Shown: in pieces, positions 10,157-30,049 of the stretch | Layout of the letters: each line of letters starts with the position of its first letter | Position numbering within the stretch: the first letter of the stretch is position 1 | Source: Candidatus Omnitrophota bacterium | GTDB taxonomy: Bacteria; Omnitrophota; Gorgyraeia; Zapsychrales; Fredricksoniimonadaceae | DNA length: 64,000 bases | Direction: 5' to 3' | Assembly (NCBI GenBank): GCA_044225175.1 | Contig: JBGAJA010000002.1 | Coordinates: 408,991 to 472,990, forward strand | Made by a program: the position numbers and the translations under genes | Notes under the pieces: model-generated | What the model saw: only the letters and a program-made list of their open reading frames with translations | Told to the model about the DNA's origin: nothing | Database searches by the model: none

Positions 10157-10168
10157 ATTTTTACTATA

Positions 10169-13804: not shown

Positions 13805-13867
13805 AAGATAAAAAAGAATACCACCATCTTATAAAGTCAACAATCAAATTAACCTAAAAATTGATAC

Positions 13868-13920: not shown

Positions 13921-14031
13921 AATATGTAAAGATGAGAGGAGAAATCCTCATTTTTTAGGTTTAATAATTAGCAGTCATAAAGTATGAGTGATAATTCTTA
14001 TTAATGTTAACTTAATAACAAGGAGGGTAAT

Positions 14032-14445
14032 ATGTCATTAGTCAGATTCTGTGGTAATCCGGTTACATCTTCATTTTGGCCAACTTTGGAGGAAGCTTTA
14101 TCCCAAAATTCTCTGCCTTGGTTACCTGAGGTTGATATTTTGGAAGAAAAAGATCATTATAAGATCAAAGCTGATCTTCCGGGTGTTAAGAAAGAGGATG
14201 TTAAGCTATCTTTTGAAGATGGTGTGCTGACCTTGGATGGTGAGCGTAAGAATGAAACAGAACAAAAAGAGACAAACTATCATCGTGTAGAACGCAGTTA
14301 TGGTCGTTTTGTTCGCTCTTTCAATCTGGGGCACGAAGTTGATGCTAATAAGATCCAGGCTAGTTACAAAGATGGAGTTTTAGAAATCACTGTACCTAAA
14401 ACTGAAAAAGCTCAACCAAAAGCCATTGATATAAGGGTAGAATAA
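14032..14445 (+). CDS. Hsp20/alpha-crystallin small heat shock protein.
   Basis: Alpha-crystallin domain (DHYKIKADLPGVKKEDVKLSFEDGVLTLDGER), 137 aa. Confidence 0.9.
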   Translation: MSLVRFCGNPVTSSFWPTLEEALSQNSLPWLPEVDILEEKDHYKIKADLPGVKKEDVKLSFEDGVLTLDGERKNETEQKETNYHRVERSYGRFVRSFNLGHEVDANKIQASYKDGVLEITVPKTEKAQPKAIDIRVE

Positions 14446-14453
14446 TAATTCAC

Positions 14454-14535
14454 GTGTCATTGCGAGCGAACGCAGTGAGTGTGGCAATCTCTCACGATCA
14501 AGATTGCTTCGTCGCTTCGCTCCTCGCAATGACAC
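14454..14535. repeat. Family B nested palindrome between hsp20 and clpB.
   Basis: The sequence is gtgtcattgcgagcgaacgcagtgagtgtggcaatctctcacgatcaagattgcttcgtcgcttcgctcctcgcaatgacac. Confidence 0.8.
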
Positions 14536-14553
14536 AAAGAAAAAGGTGAACAT

Positions 14554-16677
14554 ATGCAAATGGAACAACAACCCAAACCACTAGAAGCATACGGCAAGGA
14601 TTTAACTGATTTAGCCAGCAAGGGGAAGCTTGATCCTGTTATTGGACGGGATGAAGAGATTCGTCGTGTCATTCAAGTGCTGTCACGTAGGACTAAGAAT
14701 AATCCTGTGCTTATTGGTGAGCCAGGGGTTGGAAAAACAGCCATTGTTGAAGGTTTAGCACAAAGAATATTTCTAGGTGACGTTCCTGAAGGCTTAAAGC
14801 ATAAGAAAGTGATTGTTTTAGACATGGGAGCCTTAGTGGCTGGTGCAAAATTCAGAGGAGAATTTGAGGAACGTTTAAAAGCAGTTTTGAAGGAGGTTGA
14901 AAGTAGTGATGGATCCATTATTTTATTCATTGATGAGTTACATACAATTGTTGGAGCAGGACGAGCGGAGGGAAGTGCAGATGCCGCCAATTTACTTAAA
15001 CCTGCTTTAAGTCGTGGCATGTTGCGCTGCGTGGGTGCTACCACATTAGATGAGTATCGCCAATATATTGAGAAAGATGCTGCTTTAGAGCGTCGTTTTC
15101 AACCTGTTATGGTGAATGAACCAACGGTTGAAGATACGATTGCTATTTTACGTGGTTTAAAAGAAAAATATGAAGTGCATCATGGGGTGCGTATTCAAGA
15201 TTCCGCTATCATCGCGGCCGCCACTATGAGCCAACGCTATATTACAGAACGTTTCCTTCCAGATAAGGCGATCGACCTGATTGATGAAGCAGCATCCAAG
15301 CTTCGTATTGAAATCGACAGCATGCCTCAAGAGCTAGATCAGAATGAAAGAGAAATTCGTCGACTTGAAATTGAGCGTCAGGCCCTTAAGAAAGAGTCTG
15401 ATGCTGCATCTAAAGAGAGAGTCAAAGGAATCGAAGATGAGCTTACGACTTTAAAAGAAGAAAATAAAAAGATGCGAGCCCAATGGCAAGCTGAGAAGGT
15501 CGTGATTGACCAAATCCGCAAAATTAAAACCGAAATCGAGTCTGCCAAATTAGAAGAAACAAAAGCTGAGAAGACAGGAGACCTCAATAAGGTAGCCCAG
15601 ATCCGCTATGGCGTTCTAGTTGATTTAGAAAAACAATTAGTAGCTAAGAACAAGGAGCTTGCCAAGCAACAAAAAGATGGAGGTATGCTAAAAGAAGAAG
15701 TTGACGATCAAGACATTGCTGAAATCATCTCCAAATGGACTAAGATTCCTCTTTCAAAGCTTATGCAGGGTGAAACAGAAAAACTAGTTTCCATGGAAGC
15801 TGAGCTTAAGAAAAGGGTTGTGGGTCAAGATAAGGCTATTGACGCTATTTCTGCCTGTATCCGTCGAAGCCGAACAGGTTTAAGTGATCCAAACAGACCC
15901 TTAGGTTCATTTATCTTTGTTGGGCCTACGGGGGTAGGAAAAACCGAACTTGCCAAGGCGCTTGCCGGCTTTTTGTTTGATGATGATAACTCTGTGATTC
16001 GTATTGATATGAGTGAATACATGGAGAAGCACAGCACATCTCGTTTGATTGGAGCGCCTCCAGGATATGTGGGTTATGATGAAGGCGGGCAATTGACAGA
16101 AGCTGTCCGTCGAAGACCATTCTCTGTTGTGCTCTTTGATGAAATCGAAAAGGCCCATTCAGATGTGTTCAATGTGCTTTTGCAGCTCTTGGATGATGGT
16201 CGCCTGACGGATTCCCAAGGAAGGGTTGTGAACTTCAAGAATACGATTGTGATCATGACATCTAACATCGGAACAGCCGAGCTTTCTGAGATGACCAATC
16301 AAAAAGAAATGGAAGACCATATTCAAAAAGCCCTACGTGCTCACTTCCGTCCAGAATTCTTAAATCGTGTGGATGAGATTGTAGTCTTCTCACGTTTAAA
16401 AGAAGAGCAGATCAAGAAAATTGTTGGTCTTCAGTTGGATATTTTGACAGAGCGTTTGAGTCAGCGAAAGATATCTTTGCATGTTTCTGATAAAGCAAAA
16501 GCTTTGCTTGCTCGTCAAGGATATGATCCTATTTATGGGGCTAGACCCTTAAAGAGAGCTATTCAAACCTTGGTGCAAGATCCAATTGCTTTGCGTCTTT
16601 TGCAAAATGAAGCTAAAGAAGGTGACACCATTGATGTGGATGCGCAAGGTGAAGATTTGGCAATTGAGGTTAAATAA
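14554..16677 (+). CDS. clpB: ClpB-type AAA+ disaggregase lacking the N-terminal domain.
   Basis: Two AAA+ modules (GEPGVGKT and GPTGVGKT), a coiled-coil middle domain, and a C-terminal ClpB signature. At 707 aa it is shorter than the usual roughly 860 aa. The family-B repeat directly upstream leaves no room for an N-domain. Confidence 0.9.
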
Positions 16678-16706
16678 TTATTAACTGTTCATCGGGAGGA
16701 GGACAT

Positions 16707-17336
16707 ATGAACACAATGACATTATCTAAACTCGTTCTAGCTTCAACATTAGCCTGCACTATGATTAGTGCGCCAGTTTATGCAGATGAAAATGAGGATT
16801 TGAGAAATCAAGTCAAGGCTCTGCAAGATAAGGTAAGTCAACTAGAACAGCAAGCTGCTATTCAAAGATCTCAAAGAGAACCATCTAGGACTGACTCCCA
16901 AACATCGAATGCAGATGTATATGATCCATGGGACCCATTTCAAGAAATGCGAATGATTGAGCGACAAATGAATCAACTCATGAAAGCAAACATGGTCGAT
17001 TTTAATCCTAGGGAAGATATCAAGCAGACTGCAGATCATTATATTGTCAGTATGGATATTCCAGGAATGGAGAAAGATAAGATCAATGTTGAAGTTAAAT
17101 CAGGGATGCTTATTGTTTCAGGTGAAAGAAAAAGTGAAGTTAAAGAACAGAAACCAAATCAGTTCTATCGCCAAGAACGTTCTTTTGGCCATTTTTTAAG
17201 AACAATGCCCTTACCATCTGATGCCAAGGCGGATCATATTGAAGCCAAATACACCAATGGTGTTCTGACGGTTACAGTTCCTCGTGAGAAGGCGTCCAAG
17301 GAAAAGAAAGTAGGACAAAAAGTAGTTGTGAAATAA
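16707..17336 (+). CDS. Secreted (signal-peptide) Hsp20-family protein.
   Basis: N-terminal signal peptide (LVLASTLACTMISAPVYA), an alpha-crystallin domain (ADHYIVSMDIPGMEKDKINVEV), and an RBS-like GGGAGGAGG upstream. Confidence 0.7.
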   Translation: MNTMTLSKLVLASTLACTMISAPVYADENEDLRNQVKALQDKVSQLEQQAAIQRSQREPSRTDSQTSNADVYDPWDPFQEMRMIERQMNQLMKANMVDFNPREDIKQTADHYIVSMDIPGMEKDKINVEVKSGMLIVSGERKSEVKEQKPNQFYRQERSFGHFLRTMPLPSDAKADHIEAKYTNGVLTVTVPREKASKEKKVGQKVVVK

Positions 17337-17348
17337 ATTGGAGGAGCT

Positions 17349-17870
17349 ATGAAATTAAAAGGCCAAAAGATTCTGATGTTTGTGGATGACATTTATGAAG
17401 ACATGGAACTTATGTATCCTAAGTATCGTTTGATTGAAGAAGGAGCTCAAGTGGTGGTAGCGGGTCCCAAAGCGGGACAGATTTATAAAGGGAAACATGG
17501 TTATCCTTGCAAAAGCGATGAGGCAATTGCAAATATTCAGTCTAAAGATTTCATAGCTCTAGTCATACCAGGGGGTTTTGCACCTGATCAATTAAGACGG
17601 GATCCAAAAGTATTAAGTCTCACAAAGGAATTCCATCAGGCTGGAAAACTGGTAGCTCATATTTGTCATGCCGGATGGATTCCAATCTCAGCTGGAGTAG
17701 TTAAGGGTATTAAATGCACATCCACTCCTGGGATTAAAGACGATCTAGTCAACGCTGGAGCCACATGGGTAGATGAGACTGTTGTGGTTGATAAGAACCA
17801 TATTACAAGCCGTAAACCAGATGATTTGCCTATTTTTTGTAAATCGATTATAGACTTCCTTTCTAGATAA
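17349..17870 (+). CDS. DJ-1/PfpI-family protein (protease/deglycase-like).
   Basis: PfpI-like fold sequence with a nucleophile elbow, AHICHAGW. Confidence 0.8.
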   Translation: MKLKGQKILMFVDDIYEDMELMYPKYRLIEEGAQVVVAGPKAGQIYKGKHGYPCKSDEAIANIQSKDFIALVIPGGFAPDQLRRDPKVLSLTKEFHQAGKLVAHICHAGWIPISAGVVKGIKCTSTPGIKDDLVNAGATWVDETVVVDKNHITSRKPDDLPIFCKSIIDFLSR

Positions 17871-17938
17871 CGGTTTTTTTTCAATATAGCCTCACAGGAC
17901 TTGATTTTTCATGTTTATATGGTTTACTTTATATAAAT

Positions 17939-20900
17939 ATGAGAAAACAAACCACAATGACCTACATCAGCCGAAGGCTGATCAGCCTCTGGCTGACAGC
18001 TGCTTTTATAGTTGGCCCTTTGCCCAGGGCTCAGGCGCAAGATTTTACCTTACCTAAGCCTGGTGTCATGGTGCATCTAAGCCCTGAATTTACACCTGCT
18101 CATTTACAGGGCATGACCATTCATCCTGGTAATGCCTTACAATTCGATTTCTTAATTCACAAAGGCGATAAGAATTTACAAGCAGATCAGAAGAAAGAAG
18201 AATATAAGAAACTGATCAAGTATTTCCTCGCTTCTTTGACCATTCCTGATGAAGATCAATGGGTGAACCTTTCTCCCTATGAGAAGGATCGGATCATTAA
18301 GGATGATTTTGGTAAGACTGAGATGGGCCGAGATCTTTTAGCTCAGGATTATCTATTAAAACAAATTACCTCTAGCCTCATTTATCCCGAAGATAGTTTA
18401 GGACAGAAGTTCTGGGACAAGATCTATGAACGTGCCTGGAAGGAATATCATACGACCAATATCCCAGTGAATACGTTTAATAAGGTCTGGATTGTTCCGG
18501 ATGAAGCGATTGTGTATGAGAGTGGCAATAGCGCTTACATTCTCAAAAGTCATTTGAAGGTCATGCTAGAGGAAGATTATTTGTCATTAGAAAAGCATTC
18601 TGGTGTCATGGCGAACCACAAAGGGGTGAAGCAATTTTTTAAATCTGAAAAGATTGCCCCGTCGCCTTCGGCTCCTCGCAATGACACAAGTTCTCTTGGT
18701 TCGCAGGTAGTCCGCGAAATTGTACTTCCTGCTCTTGAGAAGGAAGTTAATGAAGGGGAGAATTTTTCTAATCTTCGTCAAATGTACAGCGGGATGGTTC
18801 TGGCGACATGGTACAAGAAAGCCCTTAAAGAATCTTTACTGGGAAAGTTTTATACTGATAAAGCCAAGGTCAAAGGAGTTAATCAGGATCCACAAAATAA
18901 TCAAGCCATTTACCAACAGTATCTCAAAGCTTTCAAGAAGGGCTGTTTTAATTATATCAAAGAAGATGTAGACAAATACACCAAGGAATCGGTTCCTAGA
19001 AAATATTTCTCCGGCGGTTTTCACCGCCCTATGTTCAGAAATGGATCCGAAGTAACCTTTATCCCTGCAGGGAAGTTGAATAGAACCTTAGCGATGGCAG
19101 CTATAGTTTCATCGCAAGAATCTCTAGAGCAGGCCACTGTTGCGTTTAATGCAGCAGGAGAGATAAGGAACAGTGCTCAATCGGCAGGCGATCAGGCGAT
19201 GATGGAAAATCCTCCGAAAGACTCCAATGCGGGAAGAGAAACATTAACCTTAGAAGCTTTGGAGAGAATTATGAGCTCCTATATCCAATCGAATGAAAAA
19301 TCGATCTATGGGTTTATTCAAACTTTGATACATAGCGTAGGAGGGGAAGCAAACATAACTGCGGATCCTAAAGGAATCGAACAAGGCGCTACAATTAGCT
19401 TTGCTTTTAGTTTTCGCAGAAATATTGAGTTATCAGGCAAAACATATAGTGCCCTTGAAGTGTCAACATTTATCCTAACCGAACTTGAAAGAAAGCTTAA
19501 TGAAGAATATGGCCGCAACTATAAAGTTGAAAGCCATATCATAGACAACCACGAGAGAGAATTGCATGATGACAGGAATTTTCAACTTGTGGTTGATATC
19601 GATAGAAGAACATTTGAAAAGGCGAAAATGCGCTATAAACAATTAATGTCCTTTTCGGATATTCTTAGTCGAATTGATGAAATACCCAGAACAGCACGCC
19701 CTAATATTTTATTTATGGTGCCTAGAGACGGCAACAGCCCAATTTATTTGATGCTTCAAAATACCGGACGATACATATTCTTTGACCATGTCACTGCCTT
19801 TAGTGTATTTAATGAAGAGCTTTATTATTCTTATTTGGATCCACAGGAACAAGGCAATGTAATTTTTGTTTGTTTGAATGCAAAAGGTGTTATTAGGCAA
19901 TTAAGACCAAATGAGGTCCCAAAGAGCCTCAGAGAAGAATTTGGTATACAAGAATCTGATTTGATGGATTTAAATGGTAATTATAAGGCCAGTTTTATTA
20001 TTGGCGGGTTCAATGATAATAATGTAATTGATTCCTTAACTCAGCTAAAAGGCGTCAAAATGGAAGATGTTGAGAATAAGATGAAAGAAACTTCACAAAC
20101 AGATGCAAAATCGATTAAGGATTTATTAAAAGATCAAAACACAAAGGTAACAAAGAGAGGATTTACACATCAAGAAATAGCTGAAGCGCTTTTTATAGCT
20201 ATGCAAAATATACCTGGAAAATATTTTAAAATTGCCAACTATGATTTCTTAATTGAAAAATCAACAAGTGATTCAAATAAAGATCCTGTATTCATAAACC
20301 CCAACAATTTTCTATCGCCAGACGCACGAAAAGTCCAATATACGCTAAGGAACATCTCATTGGATAGATCAATTACATTTTTTGCATCAACTGCTTACGA
20401 TATTGCGAATTTTGGTTTTTACGGGGACCTTGATCCATTAAATATGATCGAAGTATTAGGATTAAAACCTGTGGGAAGAGATACTGGCTCTTCTGAGGAT
20501 CAGCCAAATATTATCGATGGTAAAGCTCGAATCAATCCTGATGCAAGGATGCCAGATATTAAGAAAAAGATGCGAGCAAGTAACGAAGAGTTAGAGCGAT
20601 ATCATGCTGGGATTACAGCGGCATTAACGGCCGTAGTGAAGATTAATTTAGGCAAAGATGATATAGGAGAGACAAAAATTATTAATTTTGGATCAACATC
20701 AAGAGATACGCACATCGATAATTTTTCTAATGAAGGTTTAGATATTGATTATCTTATTCAATTTAGTACTGAAGATGAGTTGAAGCTGTTTAGACGAAAC
20801 CTGAAAACATTCGGTTTTTCTGCTGCAAAGGTTATTTTTCAAGATAAAGGTTTTGAATTTGCGCAGGGACAGAGAGGTTTGACTCCTGAAGGTCAATATT

Positions 20901-21661
20901 TACAGTCGTTTTATGTTAGAGAAAAGGGTCAAAAGATATGGATTCTATTGCATGTAAAATTTGCAGTAACGAAAAAAGATTTAATTTATATAGATTGGTT
21001 TGACCGGCAAATGACTCAAATTGAAAATTTAGGAGAAAGCCGTGAACAAATTGCCAGAGAAATTCGTAAGATGAAAAGCGTTATTCAAGATATGCGAAAG
21101 GGAAAAACTTATAAGCGTCGTGCTATTTCTATTGCCTTTGAGCAATTGGTTATTCAATCAGCGGGTGCTTCAGATTATGGGCGCACAATATTAGGAGTTG
21201 GAAGTTTTCAAAAGGCCATCGATCGAGTTTATGAGGCAGGTTATGATAAGCTAAATAAACGTGTAATCCCTCTTCAAGAAGTTCAAGATACTTTTCAAAT
21301 TTTTGATCCGGAGAAGAGAACTAATTATATAGCTACTTTTACAGTTCAGGAATGGAATGATTTAGTCAATTTAGTTATAAAAATTAAAGAAACACCAGAT
21401 TTTCTTAAGGAGATTATCGTAGGCAACCCAGGGAACTTGACAGATTCAAACAAAGCGATGACAGCAAAAGGTGGTGTTGACTTTAACTCTGCGAATTTGA
21501 ATTTACAAATCAAGCGTGATGGCCGTGGGGTGCCGCTGCCTTTAGCCCAGCAGGATATGGCCCAACTAAACGCCATTGAAGGTTTTGAAGTTAATATCTT
21601 GGAAATTAAACCTGCTGTTAATGTTTCCATCATTTCTGAATTAAAAACCATTGCAAAATAA
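17939..21661 (+). CDS. Large secreted modular protein, paralog 1 (1240 aa). It has a conserved N-terminal domain, a putative pol-beta-like nucleotidyltransferase motif in the middle region, and a conserved C-terminal domain.
   Basis: Signal peptide. The N-terminal roughly 330 aa and C-terminal roughly 90 aa are homologous to the 26711 and 63512 ORFs (KLIKYFLASLTIP..WVNLSPYEKDRI). A GS..(15)..DID motif lies near 20690-20749. Confidence 0.6.
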   Translation: MRKQTTMTYISRRLISLWLTAAFIVGPLPRAQAQDFTLPKPGVMVHLSPEFTPAHLQGMTIHPGNALQFDFLIHKGDKNLQADQKKEEYKKLIKYFLASLTIPDEDQWVNLSPYEKDRIIKDDFGKTEMGRDLLAQDYLLKQITSSLIYPEDSLGQKFWDKIYERAWKEYHTTNIPVNTFNKVWIVPDEAIVYESGNSAYILKSHLKVMLEEDYLSLEKHSGVMANHKGVKQFFKSEKIAPSPSAPRNDTSSLGSQVVREIVLPALEKEVNEGENFSNLRQMYSGMVLATWYKKALKESLLGKFYTDKAKVKGVNQDPQNNQAIYQQYLKAFKKGCFNYIKEDVDKYTKESVPRKYFSGGFHRPMFRNGSEVTFIPAGKLNRTLAMAAIVSSQESLEQATVAFNAAGEIRNSAQSAGDQAMMENPPKDSNAGRETLTLEALERIMSSYIQSNEKSIYGFIQTLIHSVGGEANITADPKGIEQGATISFAFSFRRNIELSGKTYSALEVSTFILTELERKLNEEYGRNYKVESHIIDNHERELHDDRNFQLVVDIDRRTFEKAKMRYKQLMSFSDILSRIDEIPRTARPNILFMVPRDGNSPIYLMLQNTGRYIFFDHVTAFSVFNEELYYSYLDPQEQGNVIFVCLNAKGVIRQLRPNEVPKSLREEFGIQESDLMDLNGNYKASFIIGGFNDNNVIDSLTQLKGVKMEDVENKMKETSQTDAKSIKDLLKDQNTKVTKRGFTHQEIAEALFIAMQNIPGKYFKIANYDFLIEKSTSDSNKDPVFINPNNFLSPDARKVQYTLRNISLDRSITFFASTAYDIANFGFYGDLDPLNMIEVLGLKPVGRDTGSSEDQPNIIDGKARINPDARMPDIKKKMRASNEELERYHAGITAALTAVVKINLGKDDIGETKIINFGSTSRDTHIDNFSNEGLDIDYLIQFSTEDELKLFRRNLKTFGFSAAKVIFQDKGFEFAQGQRGLTPEGQYLQSFYVREKGQKIWILLHVKFAVTKKDLIYIDWFDRQMTQIENLGESREQIAREIRKMKSVIQDMRKGKTYKRRAISIAFEQLVIQSAGASDYGRTILGVGSFQKAIDRVYEAGYDKLNKRVIPLQEVQDTFQIFDPEKRTNYIATFTVQEWNDLVNLVIKIKETPDFLKEIIVGNPGNLTDSNKAMTAKGGVDFNSANLNLQIKRDGRGVPLPLAQQDMAQLNAIEGFEVNILEIKPAVNVSIISELKTIAK
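18603..18687. repeat. Degenerate family B palindrome, in frame inside the paralog-1 gene.
   Basis: The sequence is gtgtcatggcgaacc...gaagattgccccgtcgccttcggctcctcgcaatgacac. It translates as SGVMANHKGVKQFFKSEKIAPSPSAPRNDTSS and lies exactly in a segment that is hypervariable between paralogs. Confidence 0.7.
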
Positions 21662-21695
21662 GAGAGTATGAAACACTTAGAGGTCAAATGTGGTC

Positions 21696-21723
21696 TTGAC
21701 AAAGAAATAGCTCATGCTATACT
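21696..21723 (+). promoter_or_regulatory. Sigma70-type promoter: TTGACA, 16-nt spacer, TGcTATACT.
   Basis: Consensus -35 and an extended -10, upstream of hrcA. Confidence 0.55.
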
Positions 21724-21724
21724 T

Positions 21725-21751
21725 CTAGCAGTCAAACATTGAGAGTGCTAA
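21725..21751 (+). promoter_or_regulatory. CIRCE (HrcA operator) CTAGCAGTC-N9-GAGTGCTAA.
   Basis: Perfect right arm and a 9-nt spacer. It lies between the promoter and hrcA. Confidence 0.65.
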
Positions 21752-21812
21752 TCCTGCTGCGCTCCAAAACTTCCGTTTGGGAGCTTCGCAGAGATGAGTC
21801 TCAGGAAAACAT

Positions 21813-22547
21813 ATGGCAGCTAAACATTTAGATATCAAACAACGTAAAGATCGAATCCTGGCTATTGTCGTTGGGCAATATATCAAGACAATTACGCCGG
21901 TTGGGTCTCATTTTTTGACTGCTGAATACAATTTAGATGTTTCTCCCGCCACTGTCAGGAACATCTTGGCAGAGTTAGAAGAACAAGGTTATTTGACACA
22001 TCCTCACACATCCGCGGGCCGCATTCCGACCCAGCGCGGTTATCGGTACTATGTAGATCACTTAATGAATGAAATTCAGCTTTTGGAAGAAGAAAAGCGG
22101 CGAATTCAGTCAGAACACAAGCAATATACTAATCAGTTAGAAGCTTTAATGGAAAAAACGTCTGAAACCCTTTCAGACTTAACACATTGCACCAGTATCA
22201 TTTCAATTGATGGCTGGGGAAGTAAAATTATTTTAAAAGGGACGAGCCATGTGGTTGGCTATCCTGAACAAGTAGATGTTTTGAAGATTCAGGCGATCTT
22301 GAGGATTCTTGAAGAGAAGGAACGTTTATTATCTTTGATTAATCGTGATTTGGAACACAAAACGGAGATCTTTATCGGCCATGAAATGGCCTTGAAAGAA
22401 ATGGAAAGCTGTTCTTTAGCTGTCTCAAGCTTTGAACAAGAGGGTGTCACAGGACGCATTGCAGTTTTGGGACCAACTCGTATGGACTATGACCGCGTAG
22501 TTTCTGCTCTTGAGTATATCTCCGATTTGTTAAGTCATAGAAAATAG
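21813..22547 (+). CDS. hrcA: Heat-inducible transcription repressor HrcA.
   Basis: N-terminal winged HTH and HrcA-like sequence. It lies upstream of grpE-dnaK. Confidence 0.9.
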   Translation: MAAKHLDIKQRKDRILAIVVGQYIKTITPVGSHFLTAEYNLDVSPATVRNILAELEEQGYLTHPHTSAGRIPTQRGYRYYVDHLMNEIQLLEEEKRRIQSEHKQYTNQLEALMEKTSETLSDLTHCTSIISIDGWGSKIILKGTSHVVGYPEQVDVLKIQAILRILEEKERLLSLINRDLEHKTEIFIGHEMALKEMESCSLAVSSFEQEGVTGRIAVLGPTRMDYDRVVSALEYISDLLSHRK

Positions 22548-22565
22548 AAAAGGACACAATAAGGT

Positions 22566-23105
22566 ATGGACGAAAAAGTTCAACAACCTCAAGAAGAAAT
22601 TTTGTCACAAGAACAACATCCTCAAGAGCCCAGCGCTTCACAAGCTAGTGAAGTAGATGTGTTAAAGAATTTGTTGAGTATTGAGAAAGATAAATATGTT
22701 CGTCTCTTAGCTGAATTCGACAATATGAGAAAACGTCATGAGCGCGATCGCATGGAATTGATTAAATATGCTCATGAGGAAGTTATTATTGAATGTTTAA
22801 AGCTTTATGATAATCTTGAACGCTCTTTGAACGCTTTTAAGGCAAAAGAAGGAACTGATCCAAACTTGGTCAAAGGTCTTGAAATGGTTTTTAATACGAT
22901 GAAAGAACTGATGACTAAATATGAGGTTAAACCAATAGAAGCTGTTGGTAAACCTTTTGATCCAAACACACAAGAAGTGTTGATGCAGCAAGAAACAACG
23001 GATTTTCCCGACGGTGTTGTCATGGAAGAATTTGAAAAAGGATATACCCTAGGTGGTAAGGTTGTGCGGACCCCTAAAGTTAAAGTAGCGAAGAACAATA
23101 CGTAG
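22566..23105 (+). CDS. grpE: Nucleotide exchange factor GrpE.
   Basis: GrpE coiled-coil and C-terminal beta domain, in the conserved operon position. Confidence 0.9.
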   Translation: MDEKVQQPQEEILSQEQHPQEPSASQASEVDVLKNLLSIEKDKYVRLLAEFDNMRKRHERDRMELIKYAHEEVIIECLKLYDNLERSLNAFKAKEGTDPNLVKGLEMVFNTMKELMTKYEVKPIEAVGKPFDPNTQEVLMQQETTDFPDGVVMEEFEKGYTLGGKVVRTPKVKVAKNNT

Positions 23106-23163
23106 AGACGTAGCAGTGCTGCGTCTGTACAGGAAATATTAATCAAGAATCAAGGAGGAATAT

Positions 23164-25092
23164 ATGGGTAAAGTCATTGGAATCGATTTAGGTACATCAA
23201 ATTCAGCTGCAGCTGTGATGGAAGGCGGCAGACCAGTCATCATCCCTTCAGCAGAAGGGGCTGGGGTTGCATCGGGTAAGGCATTTCCATCATTTGTTGC
23301 CTTCACCAAAGACGGGCAATTACTCGTCGGAGAACCTGCACGTCGTCAGGCTCCTATCAATTCAGAAGGAACCATTTATGCTTCCAAGCGTAAAATGGGT
23401 ACAGATTTTAAATTTAAAGTGTTCGGTAAGGAATACACTCCTCAACAAGTCGGATCATTTATCTTACAAAAAATCAAAGCAGATGCTGAGAAGTTTTTAG
23501 GCGAAACAGTTGATGGCGTTGTCATCACCGTTCCTGCTTACTTCAATGATAATCAGCGTCAAGCCACAAAAGATGCTGGTGAAATCGCTGGCTTAAAAGT
23601 TCTTCGTATTATCAACGAACCAACCGCTGCTTGCTTGGCTTATGGTTTGGATAAAGTCGGCAAAGAACAAAAGGTCATGGTTTTCGATCTTGGCGGTGGA
23701 ACATTGGATGTCACCATCCTTGAAATGGGCTGGGATGAAGCAGCTAAAGCAGCTACATTTGAAGTATTATCGACGAGTGGTGACAATCAACTAGGCGGTA
23801 CTGATATGGATAACGCTTTGATTGATCATATCGTTAACGAATTCAAAAAAGAAAGCGGTATTGATTTGCGTAACGATAAAATGTCATTCCAACGTTTACG
23901 CGAAGCTGCTGAAAAAGCTAAGGTGGAGTTATCTAGCACTGTTTCCACTGAAGTGAATCTACCTTATATTACGGCTGATGCCACAGGGCCAAAGCATTTA
24001 AATATGAAGATCGATCGTGCCAAATTAGAAAGTTTGATTGGGCCAATCGTTGATCGTTGTAAAGGGCCTGTTCGTCAAGCCATTAAAGATGCTTCTTCCA
24101 AATTAGGCGAAGAGGTGAAGGTTGACCGCATTGTCTTAGTCGGCGGTCCAACACGTATGCCAGTTGTTCAACAATTCTTGGAAAAAGAAGTTGGACAAAA
24201 AATCGAAGGTGGTATTGATCCAATGGAATGCGTGGCCTTAGGAGCTGCAATCCAGGGCGCTATCATCACTGGAGATGCTAAAGAAGTTCTTTTACTCGAC
24301 GTGACACCACTCTCTTTAGGGATTGAAACCATGGGTGGAGTTTTTACCAAGATGATTGAACGAAACACCACAATCCCAACTAAAAAAGCAATGCCATTCT
24401 CAACGGCTGAAGATAATCAGCCTGCGGTGACAATCCGTGTCCTGCAAGGTGAACGTCAAATGGCTAATGACAATACAGAGCTTGGAAGATTTGATTTAGT
24501 AGGGATTCCTCCAGCTCCTCGAGGCGTTCCTAAGATCGAAGTCACATTCGACATTGATGCCAACGGTATTGTTCACGTGACGGCTAAGGACACAGCAACC
24601 AACAAAGAACAAAAAATTCAAATCACAGCAAAGACCAAGTTGTCCGACGACGAAATTCAGAAAATGGTCAAAGAAGCAGAGAAATTTGCTGAAGAAGATA
24701 AAAAACGCCGTGAAGAAGCTGAGCTTCTTAATCAAGCCAATACATTGCTTTATTCTACAGAAAAGTCATTGAAAGATTATGGTGATAAAGTTTCTGCTGA
24801 TGATAAAGCTAATATCGAGAAAGAATTGGCTGCTTTAAAAGAAGCTATCGAAAAGAAAGATCAAGAAAAAATCAAATCATCTATGGAATCATTGCAAAAG
24901 GTCAGCCACAAGCTAGCTGAAGAAATGTACAAGGCTACAGCTGCCCAGCAACAAGGTGCTCCTGGAGCAGATGCAGGAGCTCAGCCTAATGATGCGGGTC
25001 CTTCACAAGATCAAGGTGGCGCATCAGATGAAGGTTCTAAACCAAAGGATGATGTAATCGACGCTGATTTTAAGGCGACGGATAAAAAATAA
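23164..25092 (+). CDS. dnaK: Chaperone DnaK (Hsp70).
   Basis: Highly conserved Hsp70 sequence with GIDLGTSNS and DLGGGTLD motifs. Confidence 0.97.
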
Positions 25093-25114
25093 TAAAATGA
25101 ATGCGGAATTTATC

Positions 25115-25173
25115 GTAGGGGCGGCCCCCTGTGGCCGCCCTTAATAAGGGCCGGCACAGGGGCCTGCCCCTAC
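25115..25173. repeat. REP-like palindrome, family A variant, in the dnaK-dnaJ intergenic region.
   Basis: The sequence is gtaggggcggccccctgtggccgcccttaataagggccggcacaggggcctgcccctac. Confidence 0.8.
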
Positions 25174-25183
25174 AAAAATTATT

Positions 25184-26302
25184 ATGAAAAAAGATTATTA
25201 CGAAATATTAGGCGTCGCCAAAACTGCAACTTTAGCTGAAGTTAAAAAAGCTTATCGATCACTGGCCCTCAAATATCATCCAGACCGTGTTGCAGAGGCT
25301 GAGAAAAAAGATGCTGAGGCAAAGTTTAAAGAAATCTCTGAGGCCTATGGTGTCCTTTCAGATCCACAGAAAAGACAAACTTACGATCAATACGGCCATC
25401 AAGGAATTGATCAGACATATACGTCAGAAGATATTTTTAAAGGCGCTGATTTTTCAAGCATTTTTGAAGGAGCTGGTCTTGGAGATATTTTAGGTCAAAT
25501 GTTTGGAGGTAGTTTTGAAGGCGGTGGTCGTTCAAGTCGACGCGCGCGCGGTCGCGATATTCAATATGAAGTAGAGCTTACTCTGGAAGATGCTTATAAA
25601 GGCGTTCACAAAGAAATCAAAGTTCCTCGTCATGAATATTGCAAGCAATGCGATGGGACAGGGGCTAAGAATGGCACTGCTTTAAAGACTTGCCCAACAT
25701 GTCATGGTCAAGGACAAGTTGTGATGTCATCGGGTTTTTTCCGTATGGCTCAAACATGCGGGCAATGTCAAGGTCGTGGTAAGACAATCACAGAAAGCTG
25801 TCTTGAATGTTCAGGCCAAGGTGTTAAACGGGTCGTTAGAAATATTGACGTCACAATTCCAGCTGGTGTTGACAATGATTCTCAGCTTCGTGTGCGTGGA
25901 GAAGGTGAAATAGGCCAAGGTGGAAGTGGGGACTTGTATTTATTTATCAAAGTCAGAGACCACCAGGTCTATCGACGAGATGGGGATGATTTATATATGG
26001 ATGTCCCAGTGAGTTTTGTGAAGGCGACATTGGGTGGAGATGTGCTTGTTAAGACATTAAAAGAATCCGTTGAGATGAAGATCCCAAGCGGTACTCAAGG
26101 TGGAAAGATGTTTAGGCTCAAAGGCCAAGGAATGCCTTCTGTTCATGGGCATGACCATGGAGATTTATATGCAAGAGTTATGATTGAAATACCCACAAAC
26201 CTAAATACACGCCAGAGAGAAATTCTGGAAGAATTCGCCAAAGAATCTGGGGAATCCGTCAAAGGTTCATTAAAAGATCGATTCAAGAAAGCATTTAAAT
26301 AA
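25184..26302 (+). CDS. dnaJ: Chaperone DnaJ.
   Basis: J-domain HPD motif (YHPDR), Gly-rich linker, and four CxxCxGxG zinc-finger repeats. Confidence 0.95.
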   Translation: MKKDYYEILGVAKTATLAEVKKAYRSLALKYHPDRVAEAEKKDAEAKFKEISEAYGVLSDPQKRQTYDQYGHQGIDQTYTSEDIFKGADFSSIFEGAGLGDILGQMFGGSFEGGGRSSRRARGRDIQYEVELTLEDAYKGVHKEIKVPRHEYCKQCDGTGAKNGTALKTCPTCHGQGQVVMSSGFFRMAQTCGQCQGRGKTITESCLECSGQGVKRVVRNIDVTIPAGVDNDSQLRVRGEGEIGQGGSGDLYLFIKVRDHQVYRRDGDDLYMDVPVSFVKATLGGDVLVKTLKESVEMKIPSGTQGGKMFRLKGQGMPSVHGHDHGDLYARVMIEIPTNLNTRQREILEEFAKESGESVKGSLKDRFKKAFK

Positions 26303-26303
26303 T

Positions 26304-26585
26304 ATGCCAACATATCAATACCAATGCGAAGCCTGTGGTCATGAATTTGAAGAACTTCAATCCATGACTGATAAGAAATTAACGAAATGTCCTAAGTGTA
26401 AAAAGCCTAAGCTAGTTCGTTTAATCGGAAGCGGCGCCGGCATGATTTTCAAAGGCAGCGGCTTTTATGAAACCGATTATAAGAAAAAATCACCATCTTC
26501 TGATTCAAAGCCTGCATCAAAACCCTCTTCGCCTGCTTCAAGCACTGGTAGTTGCGGAGGCGGGTGTGCCTGCCATCCTGCATAG
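26304..26585 (+). CDS. FmdB-family zinc-ribbon protein.
   Basis: N-terminal YQYQCEACGHEFE...CPKCK zinc ribbon and an S/P-rich tail. Confidence 0.6.
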   Translation: MPTYQYQCEACGHEFEELQSMTDKKLTKCPKCKKPKLVRLIGSGAGMIFKGSGFYETDYKKKSPSSDSKPASKPSSPASSTGSCGGGCACHPA

Positions 26586-26642
26586 TTAAGGGATTAATAG
26601 CCAATTTAGATTATAACTCATTTCATATCAATGGGTTATAAG

Positions 26643-26671
26643 TTGGACAACTTTTCTTTATATGCTATCTT
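26643..26671 (+). promoter_or_regulatory. Sigma70-type promoter: TTGGAC(A), about 17-nt spacer, TGcTATCTT.
   Basis: Shares the ATATGCTATCTT -10 region with the hsp20 promoter. No CIRCE follows it. Confidence 0.45.
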
Positions 26672-26710
26672 TTCTTTAAATCTTATCTAGTCCTATTTAA
26701 GAGGTGAATT

Positions 26711-29700
26711 TTGTTTCAACGCGGGACATCATTAGGTGTACTTCTAGCTTTCTGTCTATCCTTGATTGCTCCTTATCAAACGGTTTGGGCTAAAGATGCG
26801 GGATTGATTTTGCCGAAACCCGGGGCAATGGTTAATTTAAGCCCTGCTTTTGAGCCTGTGATGATGAAGGGATTGAAGGTTGATCCGAAGAATCCGTTTC
26901 GGTTTGAATTCATTTTGGATCCAGGTGACGTAGGGGTGGGTTCTAAAACCATCCCTACGGATTTGAAAATCGAATCCACCAAATTAATCAAATATTTCCT
27001 CGCCTCTTTAACCATCCCCGAAAAAGACCTTTGGGTCAATTTATCTCCTTATGAAAAAGATCGAATGATTCCTTCCACCTTGGCCCAGACTGAGATGGGA
27101 CGTGATATGTTGTCCCAGGATTACATCCTCAAACAGCTAACAGCCTCTTTGATCTATCCTGAGAAAGAACTGGGAAAGGCGTTCTGGGATAAGGTCTATT
27201 CCAAAGCTCAAGCAATCTACGGAAGCACCCAGATTCCAGTGAACACCTTTAACAAGGTTTGGATTGTCGCAGACAAGGCAGATGTATTTGAGAGGGGAAA
27301 TGTAGCGTATGTGGTGGGGGCACATTTGAAGGTGATGCTAGAAGAAGACTATTTAGCGAATTCGAAAAATCAATTGCCAGCCAGGGGACATGTTCCGGAC
27401 AAAACCAACAGGAACGTGTCCCCCAGCACTTTGCCAAGCCATGTCGGGTTGGAAATGAAAGCAACCCAGGGACAATCACCAAACGTATTAGGAAACCAAA
27501 TCATCCGCGAAATTGTCCTTCCTGCTCTCGAACAAGAAATCAACACCGGCAAGCATTTCGCCCTCTTACGCCAGATGTTTTATTCCATGATCCTAGCCAG
27601 TTGGTACAAAATGGCGCTCAAGGATGCACTCATTTCTAAAATTTACGGCAATCAAAGTAAGGTCAAGGTGGGCATTAACCAGAAAGATATTAAAACCAAC
27701 GACGAAATCTTCAATCAATACCTGAAAGCTTACAAGAAGGGAGTGTTTAATTACATCAAGGAAGACATTTCCGCCATAGGCGGAACCGCCTCTGGCGGAG
27801 ATCACACTCGTCAACAACGTATCCCTAGGAAATATTTTTCAGGTGGAGAGCACGTTTGGCAATACCTAGATCATGCTCGGGTGGTCCATATGATCCCTAG
27901 AGGAACAAGTTTTGCAAATCAAGCCATGATTGCAGTGGTGGATATGACGCCTAAATCTAAAAATTCCGCCATGGCTTCAAAATTGACCCCTAATCAAATC
28001 ATCAATTTATTTAATCAAAAGTTTCCAGATAAGCATAAGCAGATTGCAGGGCTTCCTATTGCTGATGTTCAAAGCATAATAAATCCTACTACACAAAGAG
28101 CGTTTTATAGGGACTTTAAGAATAGAACAGAAAGAGATGGGATAGTGTTTAGCCGTTCCGCGACTAATCCTGTTTTTCTTAACAACTATATTAATCATAT
28201 TATGAAATTTGTTAAACCAGGTCAGAAAATTCTGTGTGTGGGAGAAGGCAGGGGCCATGTGGCTGCGGAATTAAAGAAAAGAGGGATAGATGTTTATGCC
28301 ATTGATCTGAGTGAGGAAAATACTGTTATTTCAAAAAGAAAAGGTGTTAACCAAATGGTTGGAGATGCCAGGGATTTACTTAAGCTGTACGGTCCAGAAA
28401 ATTTTGATATTGTGCTTTTTAGCGAATCCATAGGAGCAATGCCTATGGAGGACGTTTTAAAACAGGCCCATCTTGTGTTAAAACAAGGCGGAAATCTTCT
28501 GATCGGCGCTTATCCATCAACAGAAGAACGGGTGAAGATATCTCATCGGAGTAAATTCGTATATTATTCCACCCTTGAAATTAATGAAGCCCTCACTAAA
28601 GCTAAGTTTTCACATTTTCATCATGAACCCGTTTATGAAAATCCTGTCAATTTCTTTGATCTAGATGAAATGCCTGCAACATATCTTAATTTATTCGTAG
28701 CAACTAAACCACAAACAATGGATCTGCAATCCAGACAGGATCGTGCGATGGGAGTTCTTCAAGAAGATATTTCAAGGGAATTCTTATTGCTTCAAAGAAA
28801 AGTTCAGGAGTTACTTCAATATATTTTAATTGATGAAAATTGGGCAACATCACAACCAGTTACCTCAGAAATTTTTGAGGGGTTAGATTTAGATGCAAAC
28901 AGTCTTTTGAATGATTTAAGGACAAATGGTTATCTGAATGCAGCTAATGTCATGACAACAAAGCTTCAGGATCTTGAGTTTTCTTCCTTAATGCAATTTA
29001 CAAACCCCGTTTTTTCAGCCAAGAAATATGAGATTCACCAGAGAATTAAGAAGTTAAGACCGCTTATGGACTTTCGCGATATCACCCATCATGCTTTAAC
29101 AGGCCTTCTTTATTTTATGCTGATTTTAAGTACGGAAGACCTTCAAATCCTAGAAAAATTCAAAACAGACGAATTGGATGATATTGCGCATCTTTTATCG
29201 GGTTTGGGGGCTTCTTTAGGAAACCTTAATCAATATGAGATTCCAGGTGAATTAAGTACCAAGGATTTTATGTTTGCAACTCAATTGGGTAGGGTCGTGG
29301 GGGGGGTGCAACGAGCTTTGAAGGATCGAGTCTTTTTAGAAGAACATCAACAAGCAATCGCAGAAGTTGTCCAAAGGATTGAATTGATAAGCGAGCAAAC
29401 TAATCAAATCATTAAGCAAATCAGAGACCAGGCCATGAGTAATACCCCAGTTGATTCCACCAAACGTACAACACCAGGAGGTATTGACTTTGATCGCTCT
29501 AAAATGCAAATGAATGTGTCTAAAGAAGGCCAGGGAGTTCAAATGGATGCTCCAGCCAGAGGCAGGTCCGCCTTTGGCGGAGATCAAGCTATGATCGAAC
29601 GCATTCAGCGGGAGGGTTTTGATGGTTTAGAGTTTACTATTCGATCTCTTGAACCAGTGAAAGATTTGGAGTTGTTTTTGGGACTAAAAGAAAAGCCCCT

Positions 29701-29722
29701 AAGTCTTGCCGTTGCAAAATAA
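26711..29722 (+). CDS. Large secreted modular protein, paralog 2 (1003 aa), with a class I SAM-dependent methyltransferase module.
   Basis: Signal peptide. The N- and C-terminal domains are shared with paralog 1. A KILCVGEGRGHVAAE...IDLSE...GDARDL..FDIVLF Rossmann methyltransferase motif lies near 28226-28450. Confidence 0.6.
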   Translation: MFQRGTSLGVLLAFCLSLIAPYQTVWAKDAGLILPKPGAMVNLSPAFEPVMMKGLKVDPKNPFRFEFILDPGDVGVGSKTIPTDLKIESTKLIKYFLASLTIPEKDLWVNLSPYEKDRMIPSTLAQTEMGRDMLSQDYILKQLTASLIYPEKELGKAFWDKVYSKAQAIYGSTQIPVNTFNKVWIVADKADVFERGNVAYVVGAHLKVMLEEDYLANSKNQLPARGHVPDKTNRNVSPSTLPSHVGLEMKATQGQSPNVLGNQIIREIVLPALEQEINTGKHFALLRQMFYSMILASWYKMALKDALISKIYGNQSKVKVGINQKDIKTNDEIFNQYLKAYKKGVFNYIKEDISAIGGTASGGDHTRQQRIPRKYFSGGEHVWQYLDHARVVHMIPRGTSFANQAMIAVVDMTPKSKNSAMASKLTPNQIINLFNQKFPDKHKQIAGLPIADVQSIINPTTQRAFYRDFKNRTERDGIVFSRSATNPVFLNNYINHIMKFVKPGQKILCVGEGRGHVAAELKKRGIDVYAIDLSEENTVISKRKGVNQMVGDARDLLKLYGPENFDIVLFSESIGAMPMEDVLKQAHLVLKQGGNLLIGAYPSTEERVKISHRSKFVYYSTLEINEALTKAKFSHFHHEPVYENPVNFFDLDEMPATYLNLFVATKPQTMDLQSRQDRAMGVLQEDISREFLLLQRKVQELLQYILIDENWATSQPVTSEIFEGLDLDANSLLNDLRTNGYLNAANVMTTKLQDLEFSSLMQFTNPVFSAKKYEIHQRIKKLRPLMDFRDITHHALTGLLYFMLILSTEDLQILEKFKTDELDDIAHLLSGLGASLGNLNQYEIPGELSTKDFMFATQLGRVVGGVQRALKDRVFLEEHQQAIAEVVQRIELISEQTNQIIKQIRDQAMSNTPVDSTKRTTPGGIDFDRSKMQMNVSKEGQGVQMDAPARGRSAFGGDQAMIERIQREGFDGLEFTIRSLEPVKDLELFLGLKEKPLSLAVAK
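27384..27424. repeat. Hairpin GGGGACATGTTCC-(15)-GGAACGTGTCCCC, in frame at the hypervariable site of paralog 2.
   Basis: A 13-bp inverted repeat with one mismatch. It occupies the same variable segment where paralog 1 carries the family-B element. Confidence 0.55.
29555..29588. repeat. Family D palindrome copy (CCAGAGGCAGGTCCGCCTTTGG), in frame in paralog 2.
   Basis: About 32 of 34 nt identical to 6266-6299 in leuS. It translates as ARGRSAFGGDQ. Confidence 0.7.
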
Positions 29723-29751
29723 CTCAGGGGCTTAAGCTAGTATTAACTTGT

Positions 29752-29857
29752 TTTCTTAGGGGGATGTTTGGCGCGCCATAAATCAATGCACCATACAATA
29801 CCTAGGAAACCAGTGAAGGTTAATAACCCATAAAGGGCAACATCGGCCATTTTATTT
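29752..29857 (-). CDS. Small hydrophobic protein of about 35 aa (MADVALYGLLTFTGFLGIVWCIDLW...).
   Basis: Single TM helix. It overlaps the upstream small ORF, forming a likely two-gene minus-strand unit. Confidence 0.25.
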
Positions 29858-30049
29858 CTCCTTTTCTGTTGGACAAACAAAGAATCCTAGAATTCCTGTT
29901 AACCCTATGACAGTGAAAATTATTAAACGTATTGGTGGGTTAAAGTTTGGAAAAAACCAACTCGCACAAAGTGCAACCGTGGTTAGCTTAAATATATCAA
30001 AAAAAGCCTTAGCGATTAAATCACGCCTATTACGATGAAAAATCAGCAT
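29852..30049 (-). CDS. Small membrane protein (65 aa).
   Basis: Two predicted TM helices. A strong RBS, AGGAGG, lies upstream on the minus strand at about 30055. Confidence 0.3.
   Translation of the reverse strand: MLIFHRNRRDLIAKAFFDIFKLTTVALCASWFFPNFNPPIRLIIFTVIGLTGILGFFVCPTEKEK

Follow-up and report, generated by a model that had tools for sequence, protein, structure and literature searches.

A very large, undescribed protein family of the Omnitrophota with conserved ends, interchangeable middles and a module-bracketing motif

What do proteins do that share a head and a tail and differ throughout their centers, and does a position among chaperone genes say anything about it? The question is raised by a 64,000-nucleotide stretch of a Candidatus Omnitrophota genome (the window; positions 408,991 to 472,990 of contig JBGAJA010000002.1, assembly GCA_044225175.1; coordinates below are window positions), which carries two large open reading frames (ORFs), paralogs 1 and 2, beside heat-shock genes and the beginning of a third, paralog 3, at its end. 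A preliminary description made from the letters alone had read these ORFs as paralogs with signal peptides, conserved ends and swapped enzymatic cores, embedded in the heat-shock loci. All three ORFs exist, although the ATG of the third lies at 63515 and not at 63512. The analysis described here places them in a family that is real, very large and undescribed, in which the head, the tail and a motif that brackets the modules are all new, and which resembles a system for delivery or display rather than heat-shock machinery.

Conserved ends around variable middles

A profile search with a hidden Markov model (HMM), one of the checks that the preliminary description had proposed, gives a family of thousands with several copies per genome: of 1.84 billion cluster representatives, 6,704 match at E ≤ 1e-30, and the number rises to 10,014 when the threshold is relaxed to E ≤ 1e-3. 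Searching with paralog 1 brought up more than 4,800 relatives, all of them through its N-terminal third and at 55-75% identity, and every source name shown for these relatives is Candidatus Omnitrophica or Omnitrophota; the search with paralog 2 returned a similar set made up mostly of different relatives. Judged by such labels, the family is restricted to the Omnitrophota. Species-representative genomes contain at least 592 family stretches, from which 80 related loci were fetched for all of the locus comparisons below. A single metagenome-assembled genome (MAG) supplied up to 7 of the 80, tandem copies occur in about 14, and at least six copies are present on the 793-kb contig of the organism studied here, whose database proteins P0001 and P0121 are identical to paralogs 1 and 2. 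The portions of the Omnitrophota literature that were available, together with full-text searches that included the motif strings, contain no description of the family.

The conserved ends and swapped cores seen at this locus are far more general than the two complete ORFs could indicate. A three-part plan, defined by the anchors of the N-module together with one C-module motif, is present in 119 of the 120 best relatives, and its order is a signal-peptide-like start, an N-module ending in an invariant KYFSGG, a middle, and a single C-module that begins GGID[FL]N at 56-81 aa from the C-terminus. Members are mostly 560-2,600 aa long. One member, encoded at 9869-20947 (+ strand) of locus L061, is still open where the fetched sequence stops and so measures at least 3,693 aa, with a normal signal peptide and N-module and an AAA_5 domain; it may link the family to the very long proteins of the phylum.

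The N-termini of paralogs 1 and 2 align with 49% identity over 412 aa (pairwise E 5e-112), and the family HMM matches paralogs 1, 2 and 3 at 612, 463 and 172 bits, respectively, so that the shared N-terminal domain noted earlier stands as an N-module of about 350 aa in all three copies. Ahead of it, paralogs 1 and 2 have a positive n-region, a hydrophobic core and a putative cleavage site, AQA before Q in paralog 1 and VWA before K in paralog 2. By a simple heuristic, 177 of 188 evaluable relatives have the same signal-peptide-like kind of N-terminus, with AxA the commonest sequence ahead of the mature start; the members that fail it look like mis-called starts. When the full-length sequences of paralogs 1 and 2 were scanned with Pfam and NCBIfam to E = 1, no model matched the N-module or the C-module. 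An AlphaFold2 model of the N-module of paralog 1 (predicted local distance difference test score, pLDDT, 73.9; predicted template modeling score, pTM, 0.71) is mainly helical with two beta hairpins; it has no structural relative in the PDB and, in a Foldseek comparison with viral models, no match at E ≤ 1e-3. The earlier statement that the conserved modules belong to no named family thus holds for Pfam, NCBIfam and the structure comparisons. About 50 positions of the N-module are invariant, and many of these are polar (among them S80, E83, R99, D105, K109, E162, D181, E237, R248 and K261 in the numbering of the model), which would fit a binding or catalytic role.

The C-termini of the two paralogs are much more divergent, with a weak pairwise match of 23% identity over 81 aa (E 0.001). 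This match reflects real homology, because the family C-module HMM matches both proteins (paralog 1 at 112 bits, paralog 2 at 50 bits) and the two flavors of the module, types A and B, can be aligned over their full length; the C-terminal domain had been put at 90 aa and is in fact about 65-80 aa long. Type A, as in paralog 1, reads IKRDGRGVPLPL...IQGFxPEIIEIKPA, and type B, as in paralog 2, reads VRKEGxGVQMQFDPAMIERIKREGFDGLEFKIQSIVPV..LLLGL and goes with paralog-2-like N-modules. When the C-module was modeled alone with AlphaFold2, the pTM was 0.22 and almost no secondary structure was predicted despite an alignment of 67 sequences; on the strength of this model we read the C-module as a segment that would need a partner. 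The identities of N- and C-modules correlate across 214 proteins (Pearson 0.85, a value reached in none of 500 permutations), which suggests that the two ends have a common history and the middles do not, part of the correlation reflecting the two subfamilies that were sampled.

Two further observations concern the C-terminus. Between two family genes of another locus (L080, 15684-17279, + strand) lies a 531-aa ORF with a type IV pilin- or pseudopilin-like N-terminus (...LAFTIIELVIVISVLA...) and without an N-module, which ends in the family C-module (GGIDLSSAGMNLQ...APGFVPVIINIQPVTDLRNFLG; 47.6 bits). The fact that this pilin-like protein carries the module suggests that it is usable with another kind of export head. 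The last residue is valine in 51 of 297 members, against a background of 6.5%, and many type B members (e.g. P0123, P0124, P0129 and P0130) end in ...LAGV, ...LAKV or ...LASV, a hydrophobic C-terminal tag such as PDZ-domain proteins or tail-specific proteases recognize; paralog 1 ends in ...TIAK and paralog 2 in ...LAVAK.

The D-x-A-M motif and the modules that it brackets

When dipeptides were compared with none singled out beforehand, AM proved to be the most enriched in each of the three regions between modules. It occurs 349 times in the 100 aa after the N-module, where 75 occurrences are expected (204 of 222 proteins have it there), 132-152 times in the 30 aa ahead of the C-module (expected about 24) and 522 times in the middle core (expected 212); at the two junctions the enrichment amounts to 4.6-5.9 times expectation. 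Two residues ahead of the alanine stands D, N or S in about 85-90% of cases, and D alone in 52-65%. The resulting D-x-A-M motif is found a median of three times per protein, its count rising from 2.6 to 6.5 with growing length of the middle and its spacing having a median of 145 aa; 7 of 296 proteins are without it, and its density is seven times that of neighboring ORFs from outside the family. Across the 15 proteins for which Pfam coordinates were available, 58 of 60 sites lie outside the domain envelopes and the other two on an envelope edge, often with 4-14 aa between motif and domain end. In P0008, for example, motifs at residues 515 and 639 flank a receiver domain (526-632); in P0228 a transaldolase (758-1162) lies between motifs at 732 and 1171; and in P0159 motifs at 343, 786 and 1363 alternate with a hexokinase (353-781) and a phosphoglucose isomerase (PGI; 842-1331). 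The same sites split paralog 2 into N-module, methyltransferase module, helical module and C-module. At the level of sequence, [D/N/S]-x-A-M therefore brackets modules, and D-x-A-M may represent recognition or cleavage sites that separate them. Use of the motif as an internal translation start was considered and rejected, with Shine-Dalgarno-like sequences upstream of 13% of motif ATGs versus 18% of control methionine codons.

The middles that are framed in this way range from 266 to 1643 aa, and 119 of them fall into 79 BLAST clusters. A precomputed Pfam domain of any kind is listed for 59 of 240 relatives, and judged by these domains the recognizable cargo is of cytoplasmic type. Response-regulator receivers occur in 19 of the 240 and J-domains in five; further cargo includes cNMP-binding, HATPase, HPr, HD, HAD, HTH, RNA polymerase alpha C-terminal and sigma-54 AAA+ domains, TPR and HEAT repeats, and methyltransferases. 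P0159 and P0241 combine a eukaryote-type hexokinase with a full PGI (673 bits with the Pfam model, 640 bits against the Vibrio and E. coli PGI structures), P0146 carries a phosphofructokinase (PFK) and P0228 a transaldolase; the N-terminus of P0241 is clearly signal-peptide-like. According to a complete-genome preprint (10.64898/2026.06.07.730766), most Omnitrophota genomes have neither hexokinase nor PGI, and for that reason we do not regard these cargoes as core metabolism. No toxin domain appears in the precomputed Pfam lists for the 240 relatives, 59 of which have any domain. P0239, a candidate ortholog of paralog 2, was rejected as such, since it has only the N- and C-modules in common with paralog 2 and lies in a different context.

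The middle of paralog 2 is solidly assigned, at domain level, to the class I S-adenosylmethionine (SAM)-dependent methyltransferases, as proposed in the preliminary description: Methyltransf_11 matches aa 508-598 (E 9.7e-11; 42.6 bits against a curated cut-off of 21.2), Methyltransf_25 and MetW are also above their cut-offs, NCBIfam methyltransferase models match, and motif I is readable as VGEGRG at aa 510-515 with AIDLSEE downstream. The pol-beta-type nucleotidyltransferase proposed for paralog 1 is a weak lead. Its GS-x15-DID motif is present, and the profile support for the region is marginal: the PADLOC CD-NTase model 'Cyclase' matches 46 aa only (aa 913-958; E 8.9e-4), the Pfam SMODS match (E 0.086; 13.5 bits) is below its cut-off of 26.5, and the region has no relative in the PDB by sequence. 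The middle of paralog 1 as a whole (aa 400-1170) has no homolog but itself at E ≤ 1e-3 among 5.8 billion proteins, and the protein has no Pfam or NCBIfam domain above cut-off. Two relatives, P0137 and P0141, are listed with a SMODS-associated NUDIX domain (PF18167), P0137 reaching 24.4 bits (E 3e-5; cut-off 25 bits) on rescanning; with the marginal match of paralog 1 they give hints of nucleotide second-messenger domains among the cargo.

Genomic setting

The positions of the paralogs and of their parts are collected in Table 1. The preliminary description of the neighbors of paralogs 1 and 2, and of the 68-bp gap upstream of paralog 1, proved correct: the gene order is hsp20, clpB, hsp20, pfpI, paralog 1, hrcA, grpE, dnaK, dnaJ, a Zn-ribbon gene, paralog 2 and a DUF1015 gene. 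Paralog 2 starts with TTG, with AGAGGTG as a Shine-Dalgarno-like sequence ahead of it. Paralog 3 comes after priA-fmt, downstream of lipopolysaccharide (LPS)/O-antigen genes.

Table 1. Window positions of paralogs 1-3 and their predicted features.
Feature	Position	Strand	Description
Paralog 1 gene	17939..21661	+	1240 aa; signal peptide, N-module, orphan middle, C-module type A
Paralog 1 signal-peptide-like segment	17939..18037	+	aa 1-33; predicted cut after AQA, before Q34
Paralog 1 N-module	18038..19108	+	about aa 34-390; invariant WVNLSPYE at 18260 and KYFSGG at 19001-19018
Paralog 1 junction motif DQAM	19190..19201	+	aa 418-421, after N-module
Paralog 1 middle	19202..21448	+	aa 422-1170; orphan sequence
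Paralog 1 GS-x15-DID	20690..20749	+	aa 918-937; possible active site of pol-beta / CD-NTase type
Paralog 1 junction motif NKAM	21449..21460	+	aa 1171-1174, immediately ahead of C-module
Paralog 1 C-module type A	21461..21658	+	GGVDFNSANLNLQIKRDGRGVPLPL...IEGFEVNILEIKPA...; HMM 112 bits
Promoter-like TGGACA-16-TATCTT (with TG)	26644..26671	+	upstream of paralog 2; consensus match, no CIRCE
Paralog 2 gene	26711..29722	+	1003 aa; signal peptide, N-module, methyltransferase, helical module, C-module type B
Paralog 2 N-module	26792..27910	+	about aa 28-400; KYFSGG at 27830; HMM 463 bits
Paralog 2 junction motif NQAM	27917..27928	+	after N-module
Paralog 2 junction motif NSAM	27962..27973	+	after N-module
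Paralog 2 methyltransferase module	28193..28567	+	aa 495-619; class I SAM-dependent; GxGxG at 28238
Paralog 2 junction motif DRAM	28739..28750	+	aa 677-680; separates methyltransferase module from second middle module
Paralog 2 second middle module	28751..29425	+	aa 681-905; helical; no Pfam match up to E 10
Paralog 2 junction motif DQAM	29426..29437	+	aa 906-909, ahead of C-module
Paralog 2 C-module type B	29438..29719	+	GGIDFDRSKMQMNVSKEGQGVQM...DQAMIERIQREGFDGLEFTIRSLEPVKDLELFLGL; HMM 50 bits
Paralog 3, N-terminal 162 aa	63515..64000	+	signal-peptide-like segment and start of N-module; partial at window end

The implied link of the family to heat shock did not survive comparison with other loci. 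A scan of the window for the chaperone-associated inverted repeat CIRCE found CIRCE-like sites at 13894 and 13968, upstream of hsp20, and at 21725, upstream of hrcA, and none elsewhere in the window, the promoters of paralogs 1 and 2 included. The promoter element said to be common to paralog 2 and hsp20 is present as a 12-mer, ATATGCTATCTT, found at positions 13884 and 26660; its recurrence is compatible with chance, since 5 of 100 shuffled sequences contain at least two such matches. Promoter-like sites are not enriched over shuffles. Heat-shock linkage as a property of the family was rejected by a tblastn search of the DnaK, DnaJ, GrpE, HrcA, ClpB, Hsp20 and PfpI proteins of the window against the 80 loci: none has dnaK, grpE, hrcA, clpB or hsp20 within 10 kb, and the sole match is one DnaJ-like sequence. 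Because of this result, the lack of a CIRCE element of their own and the different setting of paralog 3, we regard the location of paralogs 1 and 2 as incidental, and family genes as scattered co-directionally among housekeeping genes. Since neither a promoter-like nor a terminator-like site lies between pfpI and paralog 1, read-through into paralog 1 from the CIRCE-controlled operon is possible.

Several other features of the window and of related loci were recorded. The ClpB ORF (14554-16677, +; 707 aa) has two AAA modules and a D2-small domain and no Clp_N match, and is thus a ClpB shortened at its N-terminus; in the HrcA ORF (244 aa), the match to the HrcA profile is confined to the C-terminal part of that profile. 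No immunity-like gene follows paralog 1, which is followed by hrcA, or paralog 2, after which a 538-bp gap holds two opposite-strand ORFs (29743-30049, -; 45 and 65 aa) ahead of the DUF1015 gene; both small ORFs have hydrophobic, membrane-like stretches and gained no annotation from the family searches. The LPS/O-antigen-type block ahead of priA-fmt and paralog 3 (53209-60765, +) is co-directional and encodes GT2, heptosyltransferase GT9, DegT aminotransferase, Wzy_C O-antigen ligase-like, FkbM methyltransferase, HAD phosphatase and monogalactosyldiacylglycerol-synthase-like GT28 proteins. Between fmt and paralog 3 lies a perfect 14-bp inverted repeat, GTCAAAAAGGTGTC T GACACCTTTTTGAC (63451-63479), a possible terminator or operator, with which a TTGACA hexamer overlaps. 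No RNA family was found between 13000 and 31000. Elsewhere, P0241 has tpiA-secG, opp genes, smc and dnaG-rpoD as neighbors, and in locus L082 (JGI Ga0209824_10000003) a hexokinase and PGI member (10001-14707) lies 10 kb downstream of tpiA-secG and adjoins a glgC-like nucleotidyltransferase, in housekeeping surroundings.

Proposed function and comparison with known systems

The reading that we favor, with a probability of about 0.42, is that the family consists of Sec-exported modular carriers, a modular effector or cargo-delivery family whose cargo would be released or displayed outside the producer cell. Sec would export the proteins; the N- and C-modules would carry out the step that is common to all members, namely being recognized by another partner in export, translocation or docking, and may also act in processing; and the D-x-A-M sites would be the recognition or cleavage points at which cargo modules are freed. 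The cargo would then most likely work beyond the producer: these ultra-small bacteria are host-dependent, and the interior or surface of the host or prey cell would be the site of action. In the case of paralog 1 it would be an orphan sequence with a possible nucleotidyltransferase site, and in that of paralog 2 a SAM-dependent methyltransferase together with a helical module of unassigned family. Action in or on another cell appears the most economical proposal because the recognizable cargo needs ATP, DNA, RNA polymerase, Hsp70 or phosphodonor kinases and could not re-enter the cytoplasm of the producer after export. It also fits the biology of the phylum, whose members are described as ultra-small and host-dependent or predatory (PMC10066038). 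A more far-reaching form of this proposal, which we consider doubtful, is a phylum-specific delivery and processing system of a kind new to description, in which cytoplasmic enzymes and regulators are built in as modules between an N-module of novel fold and a docking tail, exported by Sec, cut at D-x-A-M, possibly by the N-module, and handed to the host or prey to reprogram its metabolism and signaling; the same grammar may underlie the giant proteins of the phylum.

A number of points weigh against modular carriers of this kind. Export, cleavage and delivery are all deduced from sequence, the signal peptide being a heuristic call. The taxonomic labels are those of MAG records, some of which read 'Planctomycetales', 'Elusimicrobia' or 'Elulimicrobium'. 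D-x-A-M is not universal, the long ORF of L061 having none. Clustering of all ORFs in the 80 loci revealed no conserved secretion, protease or receptor gene; apart from antisense artifacts, it returned only stand-alone receivers in 14 loci and an ABC ATPase in 10. The recognizable cargo includes no toxin or classical effector domain. Confidence in the N-module model is moderate (pLDDT 74), and the correlation between N- and C-modules may stem largely from common descent within the two sampled subfamilies and not from physical interaction.

Some of the same evidence can be accommodated by display at the envelope or cell surface, with the N-module anchored in the periplasm or at the surface, the C-module docked to a scaffold much as a dockerin binds a cohesin, and D-x-A-M marking flexible linkers instead of cleavage sites, which would give multi-enzyme assemblies at the face in contact with the host. 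The logic of the cellulosome is recognizable in a family where many different enzymes end in one small conserved module and a genome holds many copies; the C-module appears to need a partner to fold and is also carried by the pilin-like protein of L080; and dockerin-bearing and scaffold-like giant proteins are known in the phylum. We nevertheless think this unlikely, as neither module shows a dockerin, cohesin, SLH, LysM-type or other known anchor signature in Pfam or NCBIfam, no scaffold partner was found in the 80 loci, and most of the cargo (receivers, HTH, sigma-54 AAA+, J-domains, ATP-dependent kinases) has no obvious extracytoplasmic use. That last property of the cargo would be expected if the hydrophobic N-terminus were not a working export signal and the N- and C-modules clustered housekeeping and signaling enzymes in the cytoplasm or at the inner face of the membrane, and the co-directional position of the genes among housekeeping genes (chaperones, priA-fmt, tpiA-secG in L082) would agree with it. 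Such a cytoplasmic scaffold is improbable in view of the family-wide conservation of the n-region, hydrophobic core and AxA pattern, which by the positive-inside rule places the rest of the protein outside, the lack of a second transmembrane segment, and the rarity of hexokinase and PGI in the phylum noted above. We give similarly little credence to a self-assembling polymer in which the N- and C-modules of the same or neighboring subunits pack into a filament, sheet or coat with the middle displayed outside, as in flagellin. Both termini are conserved and co-vary, the center is hypervariable, the C-module does not behave as an autonomous domain, and flagellins with enzymatic central domains exist; against this, neither sequence nor fold relates the family to flagellins, pilins or S-layer proteins, a regular polymer could hardly accommodate middles that reach more than 3,000 aa and hold several enzyme domains, and the bracketing motif would be left unexplained.

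The likeness to polymorphic effectors or toxins that was suggested in the preliminary description divides into two parts. An effector or delivery role is plausible, as set out above for the modular carriers. A polymorphic toxin system for competition between bacteria, with a cognate immunity protein, has a poor chance of being correct: many paralogs with swapped cores, the possible CD-NTase-like site of paralog 1 and the SMODS-associated NUDIX match of two relatives speak for it, but the variable part is internal and the C-terminus conserved, the opposite of CdiA, Rhs and LXG, no TPS (two-partner secretion), RHS, PAAR, LXG or toxin Pfam domains are present, paralogs 1 and 2 have no immunity-like gene downstream, and PGI, PFK, transaldolase and receivers are not toxic, the cargo being signaling, regulatory and central-metabolic. 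Least credible of all is membership of the heat-shock regulon with a chaperone-linked role. Paralog 1 does have a CIRCE-controlled operon on either side and pfpI is not followed by a terminator-like site, paralog 2 does come after dnaJ, and a few relatives have J-domains; all of the counter-evidence given with the genomic setting (the 80 loci, the want of CIRCE directly upstream of either gene, paralog 3 after priA-fmt, the chance-compatible 12-mer) stands against it.

If the family does consist of modular carriers, it offers a testable handle on how the Omnitrophota, which are widespread, ultra-small and dependent on or preying on other microbes, act upon their partners. D-x-A-M predicts exact cleavage or recognition points, for which existing metaproteomes and the one available culture can be searched. 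The N- and C-modules could act as search keys for the whole exported repertoire and for giant proteins built on the same plan and, should they prove to be a general carrier, could become a tool for the export of arbitrary proteins.

Among known systems, the closest logic, by analogy, is that of the multifunctional-autoprocessing repeats-in-toxin (MARTX) toxins, with cellulosomal or type IX secretion system (T9SS) cargo also close, and every defining feature of these systems that could be tested is absent from the family. In MARTX toxins such as Vibrio RtxA, conserved ends frame interchangeable effectors, linker sites separate the modules, and the set of effectors varies; the family likewise has conserved N- and C-ends, swapped internal modules whose sets differ among paralogs, and short linker sites. 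However, the glycine-rich A/B/C repeats, cysteine protease domain (Peptidase_C80) and type I secretion signal that are specific to MARTX have no Pfam match in paralogs 1 and 2; MARTX toxins lack the Sec signal peptide that the family N-terminus resembles; the termini of the family are a module of about 350 aa and a non-globular tail of about 65 aa; and MARTX cargo consists of cytotoxic effectors, whereas that of the family is metabolic and signaling and its cleavage at D-x-A-M putative. Polymorphic toxins (CdiA, Rhs/YD, LXG, MafB) are similarly multi-copy, with a conserved trafficking part and swapped modules, but carry the toxin at the extreme C-terminus next to an immunity gene, whereas the variable part of the family is internal and its C-terminus conserved; no TPS/Haemagg_act, RHS/YD repeat, LXG or PAAR domain was found in paralogs 1 and 2 with Pfam and NCBIfam to E = 1. 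Dockerin-bearing cellulosomal enzymes and T9SS cargo combine a signal peptide and diverse enzymes with one small C-terminal docking or sorting module across dozens of proteins per genome, but lack a conserved N-module of 350 aa. The T9SS Por_Secre_tail has no Pfam or NCBIfam match, and the AlphaFold2 model of the C-module has no strands and is not an Ig-like sandwich; dockerin (PF00404, with its duplicated Ca-binding F-hand) has no Pfam match, and the C-module consensus is without the duplicated DxNxDG loop. Autotransporter or two-partner secretion beta-barrels and TPS domains also have no Pfam match, the N-module model being mainly helical with two hairpins, and the helical N- and C-terminal domains of flagellin (PF00669, PF00700) are not a feature of the family.

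Two further comparisons bear on the cargo. West-Roberts et al. (2023, preprint) and 10.64898/2026.06.07.730766 describe Omnitrophota giant proteins of 10,000-147,000 aa, and the latter gives 94% of them signal peptides or transmembrane segments. They come from the same phylum as the family and share its cytoplasm-type domains (methyltransferase, HATPase, HAD, HD, receiver, hexokinase); the N-module, the C-module and D-x-A-M are not mentioned in the passages that term searches of these papers retrieved. Among parasites, microsporidia secrete hexokinases and Chlamydia secretes glycogen enzymes, an export signal on an enzyme of sugar metabolism sending it into a compartment of the host. Both infect eukaryotes, and what they export are single enzymes that bear a signal peptide or type III signal and no common carrier modules; as exported cargo, hexokinase, PGI and PFK nevertheless have a precedent in them.

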